Positions 26,025 to 44,651 of a stretch of 58,994 nucleotides of DNA are shown here, piece after piece. Position 1 is the first letter of the stretch; each line of letters starts with the position of its first letter. This stretch comes from Candidatus Eiseniibacteriota bacterium (lineage in GTDB: Bacteria > Arandabacterota > Arandabacteria > Arandabacterales > Arandabacteraceae), in the NCBI GenBank assembly GCA_043810925.1, contig JBDRNT010000035.1:1-58994 (forward strand). The letters are read 5' to 3'. A program made the translations under genes and the position numbers. The notes beneath the pieces were generated by a model that did not search any database, was not told the DNA's origin, and saw only the letters and a program-made list of their open reading frames with translations.

Positions 26025-27710
26025 CTACCTGAGGACAAGCACCTTCGTGCGGCCCGCGCCCGGCACCTCGACAAAGAGTACACCCGGAACAGCCCCCGGA
26101 ACAACCGACGTGAGATCGATCATGCTCACACCCGAGGCGGGAATCTCGATGTGCCCCACGAGCCTTCCCCTGACGTCATAGATGCCGGCCTGACGTGCAA
26201 TGTCCCATCCCGGACATTGCATCCGAATCACCCCGCTTGAAGGGTTGGGATAGACCATAAGAGTGCGTGTACCGAGCTCCATGCCGGCGATACCGGCCAC
26301 GATGTGGTTCGAAGCGTCATGTGCCTGGAGTATGCCCCACCCATAGAGCGAATCGGGATCGGAGGACCGTGTACCCGTCATCATCACGGCATCGATCACG
26401 TCAGGAGGAGTACAGGTCGGGACCTTCTGGATCACAAGCGCAAGTGCACCCGCGGTCAGCGGAGTCGCAAAGGACGTCCCATCACCACGTCCGTAGTCGT
26501 CGACCGCACTGGGTCGAGCGACGTAGGCCGCCCCACCCATTGCCATTATAGTAGGCTTGATGCGCCCGTCATAGGTCGGCCCCTGAGACGACCAGTACGA
26601 GCGGACCCCCGTTGAATCCACCGAGCCGACCGATATGACACTGTCCCCGTCGGCGGGGGCCAGTATGTATTTCCATGAGCCGGCCCCCGAATTGCCGGCC
26701 GCATTCGTAACGACGATCCCGTTCAGTACGGCCATGTCGGCGGCTATCGTGATCGGCGCAGTATCACCATCCATATCTTCATACGTATACCAGTCGTTGT
26801 AGCAAAGTGAACTCGTGATGATCTGTGCCCCGAGACTGTCAGCCCACTCCACGGCCTCGATCCACCAGTCTTCCTCCACGGGCTCTTCCTGAGAAGTATC
26901 CTCGGTCTTTGCGAGAATGTAGTCGGCGCCGTAGGCGGCACCCATAAGTATACCGGGGCTGTTCGCTGCAAGGAGCGAGAGACATGAGGTCCCGTGATAG
27001 TGCTGGTATTCGGGATCACCGGGCTCGTTCGCCGTCTCACCGTCATCGTTTATGAAGTCATGCTGGGCGATCAGATTGAGCGCCGAGAAACACTCGTGTT
27101 CCAACCAGAAACCCGTATCGAAAATCGCAACCCTTACGCCCGTACCTGTATAACCCTCATCATGAAGGTCGGTCACCTGCATCATGTCAAGCTGTGTGAA
27201 GGACTCTCCGTAGGACTCAAGCGCACCAACAGGCTTGGGCTTCCCATCCGGCACCGGCAAAGCGGGACCACCCCTTCTACCGCTTACCCTGCTGAGTCGT
27301 TTGACGAAACCCAGACCGCTGATGCGTTCTACCTGACCGCGGCTTGCCGTGACACTGACTGCGTTGAGCCACCTGGAGAAACTCCTGAAGGTCACCCCCT
27401 CGTCTTCAAGAGCCTGGATATAGAGTTTGTTAAGCGGCAGGTCATGCTCATCGAAAGGCCGGCCCGGCCGCGCCCTGAGCCTCCTCGTGACGGCCTCAGG
27501 ATCATACGTGGCCCATACCTCCCGGATCCGGGCTTCCCTGTCTGAAACCGAGGACTCCCCCTTATCACTGAAGAAGACCCACACCACGATTGTCTCGTCA
27601 CCTTCGGCCTGCTCGAGCCAATCGGTCACCGAGGGGGACAGGCCGGGGTAAGTGCTTGACGCCAGAAACAGGACTCCAAGACTCAATATGAGCGCACTGC
27701 GGACTATCAT
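26025..27710 (-). CDS. Secreted S8 subtilisin-like peptidase with T9SS-like C-terminus
   Basis: Signal peptide and prodomain; triad FDTG, HGT, GTSFATP; AAGN oxyanion residue; C-terminal VYPNP...IYDVRGR...RTKVLVLR. Confidence 0.92.
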   Translation of the reverse strand: MIVRSALILSLGVLFLASSTYPGLSPSVTDWLEQAEGDETIVVWVFFSDKGESSVSDREARIREVWATYDPEAVTRRLRARPGRPFDEHDLPLNKLYIQALEDEGVTFRSFSRWLNAVSVTASRGQVERISGLGFVKRLSRVSGRRGGPALPVPDGKPKPVGALESYGESFTQLDMMQVTDLHDEGYTGTGVRVAIFDTGFWLEHECFSALNLIAQHDFINDDGETANEPGDPEYQHYHGTSCLSLLAANSPGILMGAAYGADYILAKTEDTSQEEPVEEDWWIEAVEWADSLGAQIITSSLCYNDWYTYEDMDGDTAPITIAADMAVLNGIVVTNAAGNSGAGSWKYILAPADGDSVISVGSVDSTGVRSYWSSQGPTYDGRIKPTIMAMGGAAYVARPSAVDDYGRGDGTSFATPLTAGALALVIQKVPTCTPPDVIDAVMMTGTRSSDPDSLYGWGILQAHDASNHIVAGIAGMELGTRTLMVYPNPSSGVIRMQCPGWDIARQAGIYDVRGRLVGHIEIPASGVSMIDLTSVVPGAVPGVLFVEVPGAGRTKVLVLR

Positions 27711-27741
27711 ATAATCTCCTTTGCTAAACTACCACAATCCT

Positions 27742-27770
27742 ATTATACCACAATCAGGGCCGATTCTCAA
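27742..27770 (-). promoter_or_regulatory. Sigma70 promoter of the S8 peptidase
   Basis: Minus strand TTGAGA-17 nt-TATAAT with extended TG; the -35 lies in the left arm of the 27764-28015 element. Confidence 0.7.
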
Positions 27771-28015
27771 TGGGGTCCGGAGGAGGTCAGAGCTCGAGAA
27801 TCGTGGATACGGCGTCAGGGTCCCACCCCCTGCGCCCAAGGGGTCGAGGTCGTTACCGATCCTGCGATTTCCGAGCTCTGACCCCAGGTGATGAAACTGC
27901 GCCGGCGCAGCATCTCGGGCCGCAGGCGAATTCGTCGGGGGTGGAACCCCGCCGCTACGGCAAGGCGGACCGAAGGCAAGCCAGCACGTCAGGTTGCACC
28001 GACGACCATTGAGAA
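27764..28015. ncRNA. Unidentified structured element (candidate ncRNA or MITE)
   Basis: 10-bp perfect terminal IR TTCTCAATGG/CCATTGAGAA enclosing three helical domains; no credible ORF. Confidence 0.5.
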
Positions 28016-28044
28016 CTGTGCCGGCGATAGGCCCCCCAGGGAAA

Positions 28045-28587
28045 TCAGGGTTTGAGGGGTTCGAAATTGACGAAGTCTGCGTGGTGGATGATTATGGCCT
28101 CGGTAGTCCGCTTGCCGAGATCGCCCTCCTTGGAGTGGTAGGCGATCATGTGGAGAACCTGAAACGGAAGTCCGTGCTTGTACGCAAGCGCCTGGCCCGA
28201 AAACGGATGCCTGAGGAGACTCCCCTTCTCGCTTTTGACCACCGCATCTCCCTTGCGAACATACTCGAGCAACTTGCCGACATCATGCAGGATGCCGCCG
28301 GCGACCAGGATGTCCATGTCTATGGTGACAGCCTTGCCGTAGTTCTCGATCAGCGTCTCCGCGATTCCGACTGCGGTCCGGGTGACAACACGCGTGTGCA
28401 TTATAAGATCGAACTTGCAGTCCGGGATGAGTAGTGTGAACGGTATGCTCGTAAGGTCATCGGCCGTCCAGCCGCCGAGATCGATGGCATCCTGCCAGAC
28501 CGAGATCACGCTGTGCCTGAGTTCCTCTCGCTTTATCAGATCTACCTCAGGCAACAGATTGCGGACGCTTTCGGGGCTCGTACTCAA
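28045..28587 (-). CDS. HD/HDIG-domain metal-dependent phosphohydrolase
   Basis: HTR.V, LHDVGKLLEY, LRHPFSG, AYHS.EGD, HHADF motifs. TTG start overlaps the upstream TGA (TTGA); SD AAGGAGG. Confidence 0.88.
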   Translation of the reverse strand: MSTSPESVRNLLPEVDLIKREELRHSVISVWQDAIDLGGWTADDLTSIPFTLLIPDCKFDLIMHTRVVTRTAVGIAETLIENYGKAVTIDMDILVAGGILHDVGKLLEYVRKGDAVVKSEKGSLLRHPFSGQALAYKHGLPFQVLHMIAYHSKEGDLGKRTTEAIIIHHADFVNFEPLKP

Positions 28588-29495
28588 CTTTTTCCTCCTT
28601 TGGCTATCGCTCTGTGGATGCCGATCCCCAGAATCCCGGCTATGTTGGCTTTCGCATCTATCCTGGGTACGATGCCTCCCCGTGGATGCGTCAGGATTGT
28701 TGTCACACCCGGCCCGTGGCCCGAGATCACACAATCGGAATGCACGACGATACCTATGGTGACCGCGCCCTTGCGGTACATCCGCCCGTAGGTGTTGTCG
28801 GCGTCCTTGATGGCGACTATGTCTCCAAGGCGGATATCGGCCAGACCGTGTTTGTCTACGCTCTTCTTATCCAAAAGCTGGATGTCATAATCACCTGAGT
28901 GAGCGTGAACCTTGCCGATCCCCGAGCCCATCATTGCGGCCGGAATCACGTGGGAGACACCGATCTCAAGCTTGCCCTTGACCGATTCGATCTTCATCTT
29001 GCCAAGGAGGGCTGGATCCAGATTCATGACACGGACCTCATCAAACTCTTGCATCTTAAGGCCCGTACCGCATGCCTTGACAAGTATGGAGTCACCGATC
29101 GCGAGCTTGTCCAGTGTCCGTTCATCGAAATCCATAAGAACGTGTTCGATGCCGCCGTGCTTGCCGGTCACGACTCCCTTCGCACCCTTTGCATCTCCGC
29201 TGATCACCGTGGCGGTGTTGCCGATACAGGAGAGAATATTGAGGGCGGCGTTGGCACTCCTGGTGCCTTCTCTCGGTGACATGTTCTTTACGCTGACGCC
29301 CGGCTCGACGTGGTCCGCCACCCAGCCACATGCAGGGTGACCCACCTTCATGTTGTAAGTGATTCCACCGGTGCCCGGCAAGATCACGGGCTTTCCCGTT
29401 GAGCCGATCCTGTAACCCGTCTCGGCCATAGCCGGGCTTGACACCTGGCCAATCACTGAAAGCATCACCAAACGCTCGGCGTTGGTCTTCATCAC
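28584..29495 (-). CDS. DUF4438-family protein
   Basis: LPGTGGITYN.KVG, DHVEPGVS, CIGN.A.V.SG.AKG..G.VTGKHGG.EH, GDYDI, VHSDC..SGHGPGVT. Confidence 0.8.
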   Translation of the reverse strand: MMKTNAERLVMLSVIGQVSSPAMAETGYRIGSTGKPVILPGTGGITYNMKVGHPACGWVADHVEPGVSVKNMSPREGTRSANAALNILSCIGNTATVISGDAKGAKGVVTGKHGGIEHVLMDFDERTLDKLAIGDSILVKACGTGLKMQEFDEVRVMNLDPALLGKMKIESVKGKLEIGVSHVIPAAMMGSGIGKVHAHSGDYDIQLLDKKSVDKHGLADIRLGDIVAIKDADNTYGRMYRKGAVTIGIVVHSDCVISGHGPGVTTILTHPRGGIVPRIDAKANIAGILGIGIHRAIAKGGKS

Positions 29496-41218: not shown

Positions 41219-43204
41219 GTGAATGATGCGGGCCTGACCGGAGGGTCTCCTTTGCAGGGCAAGAAATTGAGCCTTTTCGTCGTCGCGATCTGGGTGATTC
41301 TCGTATGGGTTCTTTTCATCGTGCACCAGCAGAAGCCGTTTGTCCAGGAGGGGCACACGACGGACCTCGTCGGGTCGCTGCTTGCCGTACTCGCTGTTTT
41401 CCTGGTTTCGACTTCGCTGGGCCTGCGTGTCCTGGGGACCGAGCGCGGTACAAACGGTATCTTGCCGGCATGTGCCCTCGGCCTTGCTCTCCTCGGTATG
41501 GGCACCATGGTTCTGGGGGCACTGGGTGCGATCAGGCCTTATGCCGTCTGGATCATGCTGGCGGCGTTGGCCGGGGCATCGTACCAGCAGATCGCCCTTA
41601 TCTTGAGACGACTGCCATCTGCGAGTATCCGTGATCTCAGCATGCCGGAGACGGCTGTGACGGTCGTAATGATCTTGGCCCTGATCATCTGTCTCATAAA
41701 CTGCCTTGCCCCGCTTACGGCCAACGATGCGCTCGTCTACCACCTGAAGATCCCGAAGATCTATGCATCGAGCGGTGGATTCGTCAGGCTTCCGCACAAT
41801 GTCTATGCCAACATGCCCCATAACGGGGAGATGCTCTACACACTCGTCTATTCGGTGGCCGGGGAAACAGGTGCGAGGCTCTGCTATATGTTTCTCATCA
41901 TCGCAGCTGTGGGAGCCGTCTATGGGCTGGCCAGGAGATTCATGGAGCGAGGGCCGGCACTTTTCGCAGCGAGCATCTTCCTTGTGCAACCTCTTATTCT
42001 TGACCACCGGACCGTCTGCAACATCGATGTCGTACTTGCGTATTTCTATGTGTCCGCCGCCGCAGTCGCGTTCGACATGTGGAAACGCCGCATGAGCATG
42101 AGGCGCCTGGTTGCCCTTGGGGTGCTCGCCGGGTTCATGCTGGGCATGAAGTACACGGCCATGGCCCCCTGCATTACTCTCATCATCATCCTGCTTGCCG
42201 CCAGGCCGAAACGTGCAGGCGTTAAGACCATGACCGCGGGCATCCTGATTGCGCTCATTGTCTTCGTGCCGTGGATGATCAAGAACGAAAGCTACATCGG
42301 TAACCCCGTCTACCCGCTCCTTGAGACCACCTTCGACGGACAGAACTGGGATAAGGTCCAGGCGTCGCAGTTGACCGCCTGGCAGCACGGGATGGGTATG
42401 GGAAGAGGTGTGACCGACTACCTGCTCTTGCCTCTAAACATAAGCACGAGGGGAAAACCCGGTCTGAACTACACGCGCTTCGACGGCACGATGACACCGC
42501 TTTTGCTGATACTGGTCCCGCTGGCGCTGCTCGGCCGGAGGAGACGGACATCGGTACTGATCACGATGGCTGCAGTCGGGTTCGTGTTCTGGGCGGTGAC
42601 GTCTCAACAGCTGCGTTTTCTCATCCCGTCGATTGCGGTGCTGGCGGTGCTGGCCGGTGCCGGGCTGTCCAACCTCTCGGGTCGCGTCGGCCGAAGAGCG
42701 TTCAGCGTGGTGCTAGTCTCGGTGATCCTCATCGAAATCTCCACCCTGTTCGTTTCGGATCAGTATCGGAGACCTTTCCTGTCAGGCGTTTTCGCTGACA
42801 GGCTGCCGGTTGTCATGGGTCTCGAGACGAGGAAGTCCTTTCTTGAGCGGTCGGTGCAATCGTTTGGGATGTGCGATCACATCAACCGCACCCTCCCCCG
42901 GCATGAGCGAGTGTTCATGATATGGGAGAACCGGGGTTATTACCTGGAGCGGCCGTATTTCGCGGACAGCTTCTTCGAGGCATCAGCACTGATGCGGATC
43001 GTATCCGCCTCGGGAGATGCCGAGACGCTCAAGCAAAGAATACGCGGATCCGGCCACAACTATGTTGTCGTGAATCACCTGCTTGGTGATGTCTTCTCGC
43101 GCGGCTATCCCCCGGAGGATGTGGCGATACTCGATGATCTGATCGCAAACCACCTCAAACCCATCCACACCACCAACCGCCTGACCTTATACACTATCGA
43201 GTAG
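41219..43204 (+). CDS. GT-C (ArnT/PMT, GT39-like) membrane glycosyltransferase
   Basis: DALVYHL..PK.Y, G.MLGMKYT, PW...N....GNPVYP, QQLRFLIP motifs; many TM segments. Start uncertain (TTG 41252 possible). Confidence 0.8.
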   Translation: MNDAGLTGGSPLQGKKLSLFVVAIWVILVWVLFIVHQQKPFVQEGHTTDLVGSLLAVLAVFLVSTSLGLRVLGTERGTNGILPACALGLALLGMGTMVLGALGAIRPYAVWIMLAALAGASYQQIALILRRLPSASIRDLSMPETAVTVVMILALIICLINCLAPLTANDALVYHLKIPKIYASSGGFVRLPHNVYANMPHNGEMLYTLVYSVAGETGARLCYMFLIIAAVGAVYGLARRFMERGPALFAASIFLVQPLILDHRTVCNIDVVLAYFYVSAAAVAFDMWKRRMSMRRLVALGVLAGFMLGMKYTAMAPCITLIIILLAARPKRAGVKTMTAGILIALIVFVPWMIKNESYIGNPVYPLLETTFDGQNWDKVQASQLTAWQHGMGMGRGVTDYLLLPLNISTRGKPGLNYTRFDGTMTPLLLILVPLALLGRRRRTSVLITMAAVGFVFWAVTSQQLRFLIPSIAVLAVLAGAGLSNLSGRVGRRAFSVVLVSVILIEISTLFVSDQYRRPFLSGVFADRLPVVMGLETRKSFLERSVQSFGMCDHINRTLPRHERVFMIWENRGYYLERPYFADSFFEASALMRIVSASGDAETLKQRIRGSGHNYVVVNHLLGDVFSRGYPPEDVAILDDLIANHLKPIHTTNRLTLYTIE

Positions 43205-43259
43205 CCGGCGGCCGCCGTCGCCGGCCAAGCCTTTTGGTCCGCCTGAGCCCCTGGATATT

Positions 43260-43328
43260 CGCTGGTGCTCCCTTTGCTCCGCAAGCGAATGTCTCTCCTG
43301 AGCAAGCGGAGCAAAGGGAGCACCAGCG
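43260..43328. repeat. Perfect 23-bp inverted repeat between convergent genes
   Basis: CGCTGGTGCTCCCTTTGCTCCGC (43260-43282) and its exact reverse complement (43306-43328), 23-nt loop. Confidence 0.9.
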
Positions 43329-43388
43329 TACACCCACCCTAAATGGGCGGCCTGAGCGTAGAAAGCCGTTCGGCAGCCACCTCAGGCT

Positions 43389-44651
43389 CTACTGGATATA
43401 CCCGACGGCGCGGAGCTTATCCTTGATCTTATCGTCGACGGGTGATTCCAGGGGCTCTCCGGCAACCCGGTCGCCGGTCTCATAGGTCGGAATGAAACTG
43501 AGGGTCCGACCCTTGAGGTATTCAGGATCGAACCCGTCGGTGAGTACCCTGCCGTGCATGTCCCTTGCGACTGGAATGCCGAGCGCGTACAGGATAGTAG
43601 GTGTCACGTCGAGAATCTCGGCGTCGATGATGGGCGACCCTTTGCGGACACCCTTCCCCATCAGGCTGATTATGCCGTACTGGCCGTGCATGTAGACTCC
43701 CAGATAGAGGCTGCCGTCCTCGGTACGGCGTGGACCGTAGAAGCCGTGATCCGAGCACACGACCAGCAGGGTCCGCTCGTCTACCAGATCCATGAACTCG
43801 CCGAGAACCCCGTCCATCCAGATGTAGTAGTTGTCGATGACGTTACAGAGCGGATGCTTCGGCTTGGTTTTGAAGTCCCAGAAACAGTGGCACATCGAGT
43901 CTATCCCGTTGAAATAGACTGCCAGGAAATCTACTCCCTTATCATTCAGGTAGTGCGCAACGCGCCTGAAGGTCTCGTCGGTCGCGTAGATCATCTTGAC
44001 ATAGTCTTTGTGCCAGGAGGCGATACCGGGTTCACCTGCAGGCAGATCGACAGGAAAGAGACCAGCGATATCTTCATCGGACACGTCGGACTTGGTGAGC
44101 CTCAAAGAATCTATCTCTTCGAACAGGTCTTCGGGGTAGGTCTGCCGGTCCAGCTTTATCTTCTTATCGGTCTCGTACTGAATGTAGTCGCTCACGAGGT
44201 AGCCGTTGACCTTCTCGGCCGGCCAGGTGACCATCCAGCCGACGACGGCGACCTTCATACCCTCGTCACCGAGGATATCCCAGATCGCTTTGACCCTTCG
44301 CGCGTTTCCGGTGTAGGGTACCATTCTGCCGCCGTCCTCTGACTTCACGAAACCGCCGATACCGTGCTCGTCAGGCAACTTGCTTGTGGCAATGGATGTC
44401 CAGAGTATCGGCGATTTAGTAAGCGGCATAAACGTCTCCATCCGGCCGGTCGCCCCTTGAGTCATCAATCTTGAGAAGTTCGGCAGGCTGCCGTCATCGA
44501 GGAGATGTTTCATTACCTCTATATCCACCGCGTCGATCCCGACAACAATCACTTTGGCAGGCGGTTCAACCTCAGACGAACAAGCGAGTGTGACGATTCC
44601 TGTCGCCAGCATGGCAATCAGTATCAACCTTCGTTTGTCATTCACCGTCAT
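43389..44651 (-). CDS. Exported alkaline-phosphatase-superfamily (phosphodiesterase/sulfatase-like) protein, probable lipoprotein
   Basis: Lipobox-like TLAC; GIDA, SPILWTSIAT, D..CH.F, SDHGF, DVTPTIL motifs; C-terminal LRAVGYI. Confidence 0.85.
   Translation of the reverse strand: MTVNDKRRLILIAMLATGIVTLACSSEVEPPAKVIVVGIDAVDIEVMKHLLDDGSLPNFSRLMTQGATGRMETFMPLTKSPILWTSIATSKLPDEHGIGGFVKSEDGGRMVPYTGNARRVKAIWDILGDEGMKVAVVGWMVTWPAEKVNGYLVSDYIQYETDKKIKLDRQTYPEDLFEEIDSLRLTKSDVSDEDIAGLFPVDLPAGEPGIASWHKDYVKMIYATDETFRRVAHYLNDKGVDFLAVYFNGIDSMCHCFWDFKTKPKHPLCNVIDNYYIWMDGVLGEFMDLVDERTLLVVCSDHGFYGPRRTEDGSLYLGVYMHGQYGIISLMGKGVRKGSPIIDAEILDVTPTILYALGIPVARDMHGRVLTDGFDPEYLKGRTLSFIPTYETGDRVAGEPLESPVDDKIKDKLRAVGYIQ

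Follow-up and report, generated by a model that had tools for sequence, protein, structure and literature searches.

We examined the spacer between the minus-strand genes for an S8 peptidase and an HD-domain protein in a draft genome of a Candidatus Eiseniibacteriota bacterium. Positions are those of the window, the whole 58,994-nt stretch of DNA that was analyzed, which is contig C35 of an assembly of 3.85 Mb in 185 contigs (92% complete, hereafter G000). The spacer is 334 nt long (27711–28044) and contains a 252-nt stretch (27764–28015). A sequence-only reading had described this stretch as one novel structured RNA of about 250 nt, with three domains closed by a perfect 10-bp terminal stem. 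For comparison, we searched 41 genomes, consisting of G000 and 40 relatives, among them the same-genus genome G001. The features discussed below are listed in Table 1. The 3′ end of the HD gene faces a cluster of repeats, which therefore lies within the likely 3′ untranslated tail of that gene.

Table 1. Features of the S8-HD spacer, its flanking genes and related elements elsewhere in the same genome
Feature	Position	Strand	Description
S8 peptidase gene	26025–27710	−	Pfam Peptidase_S8, 3e-37
Predicted sigma-70-type S8 promoter	27742–27770	−	−35 TTGAGA 27770–27765, 17-nt spacer, TG-extended −10 TATAAT ending 27742
Domain 1: family A inverted (−,+) doublet	27783–27885		REPIN/TIR-dimer type hairpin, −55.7 kcal/mol
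Possible decayed family-B-like hairpin	27812–27837	−	Inside the spacer of the A doublet; weak assignment
Family E left arm, decayed	27893–27931	+	Includes the Domain 2 palindrome 27897–27910; aligns to the intact G001 copy
Family B repeat	27930–27961	+	GTAG-tagged REP, stem CGTCGGGG / CCCCGCCG, ...CTAC 3′ end; nhmmer E=1.1e-7
Family E right arm, proximal	27959–27971	+	Common to G001
Lineage-specific 39-nt segment	27972–28010	+	Gap in G001; inserted in the E right arm
Family E right arm, distal	28011–28028	+	Orthologous to G001; pairs with 27900–27910 (91%)
HD-domain protein gene	28045–28734	−	Pfam HD, 1e-10; ORF list
Intact family E copy	43255–43328	+	Match to the G001 query
Tyrosine (HUH/Y1) transposase gene	G000:C15:6403–7284		293 aa; Pfam Y1_Tnp 1.3e-9; HYH motif

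All the base pairings proposed in the sequence-only reading are present in the DNA. In the terminal stem, TTCTCAATGG (27764–27773) pairs with CCATTGAGAA (28006–28015), and an inverted-repeat search recovered this pair over 10 nt at 100%. The arms of Domain 1 (27785–27803 and 27865–27883) match over 19 nt at 89%, a perfect 12 bp included. The palindrome of Domain 2 and the TCGTCGG/CCGACGA pairing of Domain 3 were likewise found. The stretch as a whole folds significantly better than shuffled sequences on both strands, with −122.7 kcal/mol on the plus strand (z −4.50) and −124.2 kcal/mol on the minus strand (z −5.01). None of 200 shuffles folded as well on either strand. No family of Rfam 15 matched at the gathering score anywhere in the window, which agrees with the earlier remark that the stretch lacks hallmarks of tRNA, SRP, RNase P, tmRNA and recognizable riboswitches. 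At E ≤10, the sole match in 27600–28200 was a sub-threshold hit to CRISPR-DR29 (15 bits, E=3.5), and this lay on the hairpin that we assign to repeat family B below. The strong fold, the lack of an Rfam family to explain the stretch and its position in the spacer downstream of the HD gene all speak for a single novel structured RNA of about 250 nt, encoded on either strand and perhaps co-transcribed with the HD gene.

Against such an RNA stands its copy number. When G000 was searched with the spacer, only the spacer itself matched at full length, and 56 short matches were confined to three parts of the query. Per-base coverage by other G000 loci was 24 at 27874–27885 and 26 at 27936–27949. It was zero over 27711–27784, the span that holds the left arm of the terminal stem. 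The 252-nt unit is thus single in its own genome, and no full-length copy was found in the 40 relatives. Domain 1, the family B hairpin and the closing stem's right arm are all missing at the orthologous site in G001, and the stem itself is at chance level (see below). Each domain belongs to a separate multi-copy repeat family, and the strong fold of the stretch is therefore accounted for: its excess structure comes from copies of hairpin repeats that occur genome-wide. The proposal of one multi-domain RNA gene is not supported by these results, and we consider it very unlikely. Instead, the S8-HD spacer very probably represents an accumulation of non-autonomous hairpin repeats from three families, which we call A, B and E.

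Two family A repeats form an inverted doublet in Domain 1, in which a reverse copy on the left (~27783–27808) faces a forward copy on the right (27864–27888), with 91 nt between the starts of their 12-mer cores. Using nhmmer, the right copy was detected at E=0.0014. The left copy retains 11 of the 12 core bases and is degenerate (E=1.1). The core, AGCTCTGACCCC, has 79 exact copies in G000 and none for the reversed control, and allowing up to one mismatch raised the count to 101 copies in 55 clusters. An nhmmer profile search gave 75 matches at E<0.01 in G000. Of these, 63 lay outside the ORFs of a crude map, which covers 90% of the genome and at the present locus replaces the HD gene by a spurious ORF on the opposite strand. 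Family A occurs as singles, dimers and clusters, mostly between genes. Adjacent inverted pairs were exclusively of the (−,+) type (18, versus 0 of the (+,−) type), and Domain 1 is one of them. All 18 doublets fold as long hairpins of −22 to −65 kcal/mol, with core spacings of 29–92 nt. A further 28 pairs of neighbors, 29–46 nt apart, point in the same direction. Arrays of same-direction copies keep a strict period of 29–34 nt, for example the six copies at G000:C71:11433–11626.

The outer end of family A, GGGGTCAG, fits the motif GGGGWSAS, and the left copy in the window, GAGGTCAG, differs from it by one mismatch. Within a single unit, inspection of the consensus by eye revealed at most 4 bp of self-pairing and no clear palindrome. 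Because the unit shows no clear palindrome and carries no GTAG tag, we class family A as a TIR-type repeat, and the term REP in its strict sense does not fit it.

Three genes in G000 matched Y1_Tnp. One of them, the tyrosine transposase gene on contig C15 (Table 1), reached 84.3 bits against the NCBIfam model REP_Tyr_transpos (cut-off 80). This gene is flanked by family A on both sides, with two reverse copies on the left and two forward copies on the right, facing inward. The same layout recurs in G001 (85.1 bits) and in part in G015 (88 bits). Exact family A cores numbered 109 in G001 and 128 in G015, compared with the 79 in G000, and 0–2 in each of the other 38 genomes. The three genomes are the only ones of the 41 with many family A cores. 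G015 belongs to another family of the same order, and the remaining genera of the window's own family are without family A.

The other two Y1 genes in G000 are each flanked by a repeat family of their own (C and D). These genes, at G000:C115:14859–15587 and G000:C14:2853–3521, scored 69 and 62 bits against REP_Tyr_transpos, below the cut-off of 80. The inverted repeat core TTTCGGTGACACC flanks the gene on C115, and TTCGGTACCAGC flanks the gene on C14. The repeat family of the C115 gene forms arrays with a 32-nt period, and a gene of the C14 type is also found in G001.

The core of Domain 3 is a copy of family B, a stem-loop of about 26 nt that ends in CTAC (GTAG on the other strand). The copy in the window matches the family pattern with one mismatch. 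A profile search gave 75 matches at E<0.01 in G000, 50 of them outside ORFs on the crude map, and the pattern itself matched 45 times, versus 0 for the control. Close doublets were mostly of the (−,+) type (10, versus 2 of the (+,−) type). According to the crude gene map, the 44 spacers that contain family B comprise 16 convergent, 23 tandem and 5 divergent ones, against a baseline of 369 convergent, 1458 tandem and 410 divergent among 2237 spacers of G000. Family B favors convergent spacers. A second, possible relic of this kind lies between the two family A copies of Domain 1. There, 27812–27830 is 84% complementary over 19 nt to positions 27937–27955 of the family B copy, a likeness that nhmmer did not report at E ≤10 and that makes for a weak assignment.

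Outside G000, the family B pattern with up to one mismatch matched 90 times in G007, 102 times in G011, seven times in G001, four times in G039 and once each in G003 and G009. The remaining 34 genomes had no match. Family B is thus abundant in one other genus, to which G007 and G011 belong, and rare in the sister species. The patchy occurrence of families A and B across the relatives could reflect horizontal transfer or repeated loss of transposase-repeat pairs.

We found no transposase gene flanked by family B, that is, no REPtron, in G000 or G011 (assemblies 92–95% complete). G011 has two transposase matches, both without family B flanks, and G007 has no match at all to the REP tyrosine transposase family. 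Four ORFs that lie between inverted family B copies were considered as candidate transposases and rejected. They encode a PMT_2-like protein, a CMD-family protein, a protein with no match and a beta-helix protein.

Family E makes up Domain 2 and the rest of Domain 3. It is best seen in the orthologous spacer of G001, which contains an uninterrupted E hairpin of about 78 nt (−43 kcal/mol). A search of G000 with this hairpin identified 27 copies at E<0.01, including an intact one elsewhere in the window (Table 1). The family consensus is a hairpin of 18 pairs, and 8 of the 18 show compensatory changes among 22 aligned copies. Its apical loop of about 24 nt is almost invariant across copies. At the S8-HD locus, the E copy is decayed (nhmmer E=0.98 for 27897–27934), and a family B REP that is absent from the G001 ortholog has replaced the apical loop. 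The right arm is in turn split by a 39-nt segment, in which we recognized a fragment resembling a variant E right arm (as on contigs C161 and C69), a decayed B-like hairpin (~27986–28008) and CCATT. On the evidence of the alignment with G001, Domains 2 and 3 are an older E hairpin, common to the sister genome, which later gained a GTAG REP in its loop and the 39-nt segment in its right arm.

The junction of E and B found at 27893–27971 recurs at G000:C12:24809–24896. Either the E loop is a preferred target, or the composite has propagated as a whole, by copying or by gene conversion. Upstream of its intact E copy, the orthologous spacer of G001 also contains a short stretch (locus L010, ~2095–2135) that by eye resembles E termini with the interior missing between them. 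This stretch may be the remnant of a deletion or excision.

The distribution of family E is narrow. Its loop motif occurs 22 times in G000 and 11 times in G001, and it was found in none of the 39 other relatives. In a wider contig collection, the loop was present in seven stretches, six of them in one MAG and the seventh a lone match in an unrelated MAG. A search of the region around the intact copy (43200–43400) against Rfam at E ≤10 returned only generic hairpin models of the microRNA-precursor type, scoring 14–34 bits where the gathering scores are 40–124. No gene was identified as associated with the family. Relative to flanking genes that run in the same direction, E copies were oriented with the genes in three cases and against them in seven. 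This orientation is unbiased, and there is therefore no sign of a strand-specific RNA role. We tentatively raise the idea, itself rather unlikely, that family E is an undescribed, genus-restricted mobile or structured element, whose loop is possibly a preferred landing site for GTAG REPs. If true, families E and B would offer a tractable natural case of one hairpin repeat parasitizing another. The E hairpin and its recurrent fusion with a GTAG REP are the only points of the locus that are even mildly novel.

We then compared the spacer among relatives. The S8-HD gene pair is syntenic, with matches in all 12 other genomes of the family that were searched, and both gene ends were available at nine loci. 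The spacer measures 334 nt in G000, 254 nt in G001 and approximately 120–260 nt in the seven other relatives. On the minus strand, a promoter scan predicted an S8 promoter with 11 of 12 consensus matches and a TG preceding the −10. Its −10 block, ATTATACC, is kept in all nine orthologous spacers. The CTCAA core of its −35 is kept in six of the nine, and TTCTCAATG is retained in G001. Spacer sequence is otherwise unrelated among genera. The family A core is present in one of the nine spacers, that of G000, and hairpins of the family B type occur at differing positions in four. As a unit, the 252-nt stretch is absent from the G001 spacer and from the seven further relatives. The G001 spacer has the intact E copy, with no A doublet, no B insertion and no right arm of the terminal stem. 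The locus offers a clean comparison between two congeneric species, in which three families of hairpin repeats rebuild the spacer next to a promoter that does not change.

A perfect 10-nt direct repeat, TACCACAATC on the plus strand, brackets the −10 of the S8 promoter (27730–27739 and 27746–27755). In G001, the first copy could not be made out, and the second has a single changed base (TACCATAATC). This repeat could be a candidate binding site for a regulator.

The comparison also bears on the terminal stem. The span of the predicted S8 promoter takes in most of the left arm of the stem (27764–27773), as the sequence-only reading had correctly noted for the −35. The −35 hexamer TTGAGA starts at 27770 on the minus strand. 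Judging from its retention across the spacers, the left arm is ancestral promoter sequence, common to relatives that have nothing else of the stretch. The right arm has two sources: its CCATT half comes from the lineage-specific 39-nt insertion and its GAGAA half from the ancestral E arm, where G001 reads GAGAG. The exact right arm was found in one of the nine spacers, that of G000. The window contains 21 perfect inverted repeats with arms of 10 bp or more and loops of up to 300 nt, compared with 15.2 ± 4.2 in 60 first-order Markov randomizations. For a random sequence of 334 nt with the composition of the spacer, the chance of at least one perfect 10-bp inverted repeat is 0.061. Within the spacer, this value of 0.06 is low enough to leave some selection on the stem strictly conceivable. 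The closing stem has the ancestral S8 −35 on one side and recently rearranged sequence on the other, and it does not exceed chance. With an ancestral left arm, a right arm half made of inserted sequence and such repeats at chance level, the terminal stem is a recent coincidence and not a conserved closing helix.

These results also weigh against the insertion of a single MITE, bounded by 10-bp terminal inverted repeats, as the source of an outward −35 for the S8 gene. The perfect inverted ends and the overlap of the left end with the −35 agree with such an insertion, but relatives without the rest have also conserved both the left end and the −35, and the right end is split between the lineage-specific 39-nt insertion and the ancestral E arm. 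In addition, the whole 252-nt unit is single-copy in the 92%-complete assembly, and a target-site duplication was not seen, though not by a systematic search. We regard one MITE as highly improbable. The earlier suggestion of a mobile-element origin did point in the right direction. It went wrong in assuming one MITE with 10-bp ends that donated a −35, as the left arm of the stem is ancestral.

Two further readings have very little in their favor. An open frame of 80 codons that starts with ATG (27770–28012, plus strand) nearly coincides with the stretch and could be taken for a small protein gene. Its product has no Pfam match, however, and the frame crosses three unrelated repeat families. 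In G001, the frame from the same ATG has 49 codons, and BLASTP between the two products gave no alignment at E ≤100. The probability that this is a gene is close to nil. The sequence-only reading had also been reminded of a retron, and a retron-like msr/msd element would share with the stretch the general look of nested inverted repeats and nothing more. None of the six RVT_1 matches in G000 lies on contig C35, Rfam gave no retron match, and the repeats belong to multi-copy families with a link to a tyrosine transposase. A retron can practically be dismissed. The six RVT_1 matches are on contigs C132, C177, C64, C139, C36 and C11, several of them at contig ends.

We therefore return to an accumulation of repeats and to how it may have arisen. 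The tyrosine transposase would have spread family A copies as single-stranded hairpins, a route that has been proposed for REPINs and TIR repeats, and family B would have been spread by some enzyme. Copies may persist in the S8-HD spacer because the spacer tolerates insertions. Enterobacterial REPs protect the 3′ ends of transcripts from exonucleases. If the transcript of the HD operon enters the cluster, its stable hairpins could give the 3′ end similar protection and reduce read-through into the S8 promoter. Any such effect would probably be a by-product and not a dedicated RNA function.

A stronger version of this idea is that the cluster was recruited as a hairpin barrier, which ends or stabilizes the mRNA of the HD operon, shields the S8 promoter and is kept by selection. 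The cluster lies immediately downstream of the HD stop codon and immediately upstream of the S8 −35, and its hairpins are very stable. REPs in other bacteria have been reported after genes and to affect mRNA stability and termination (PMC3733652), and the preference of family B for convergent spacers would agree with such a role. On the other hand, the content of the spacer is wholly different among the nine related genomes, one of which has only ~120 nt, and therefore no specific structure is conserved. We also found no intrinsic-terminator-like site or U-tract terminator in 27500–28300. Among sequencing runs looked up for this DNA, none was of RNA, and three DNA runs contained only 0.05–0.08 of the sampled words. 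Considering both sides, we think a selected regulatory device improbable, and continue to prefer an accumulation of non-autonomous repeats.

The locus as such opens no new biological question. It does illustrate that clusters of REP, REPIN or TIR-type repeats can mimic large multi-domain RNAs in scans that use sequence only. A genome-wide check of copy number, such as the one that returned only the self match for the whole unit, resolves at once whether an RNA or a repeat cluster is at hand.

How does the locus relate to known systems? BIMEs are mosaic clusters of REPs in enterobacteria. The S8-HD spacer resembles them in that a single spacer downstream of a gene is crowded with several hairpin repeats, which form a strongly folding composite. 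Unlike a BIME, however, the mosaic at this locus draws on three unrelated families, and its architecture is not fixed.

GTAG REPs, their location after genes and the nesting of REPs in longer palindromes have been described (PMC3733652, Di Nocera, De Gregorio and Rocco 2013). Family B fits the GTAG REP super-family as presented there. It is a stem-loop of the expected kind with a GTAG/CTAC tag, is present in dozens of mostly intergenic copies, frequently as close inverted dimers, and shows enrichment in spacers between convergent genes. At the S8-HD locus, it is also nested in a longer palindrome, like the members of some GTAG families (PMC3733652). In contrast to GTAG REPs that are accompanied by a RAYT, no REPtron of family B was found in the genomes checked.

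Family A finds its closest counterparts among repeats that accompany tyrosine transposases. In TIRtrons, or TIRYTs, the transposase gene is flanked by terminal inverted repeats, some of which share GGGGWSAS, and TIR repeats form moderately abundant families of singles, dimers and clusters (PMC3733652). REPINs are inverted doublets of REPs with variable spacers, which fold into hairpins and are associated with RAYT transposases (PMC3337134, Bertels and Rainey 2011). Like the repeats of TIRtrons, inverted copies of family A stand on both sides of a single HUH/Y1 transposase gene, and the outer end of the family fits the shared motif. As in both TIRtrons and REPINs, it is dispersed as singles, inverted dimers and tandem clusters, with a patchy occurrence among relatives. 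Its inverted dimers, with their variable spacers, fold as one long hairpin in the manner of REPINs. Unlike classical REPs, the family A unit shows no clear palindrome and lacks the GTAG tag. Among the family A doublets, few are spaced as widely as the one in the window (91 nt), whose left copy is degenerate. By analogy with these systems, we infer that family A is mobile in the manner of TIRtrons or REPINs. The S8-HD locus adds a further example to a kind of repeat cluster that is already known.
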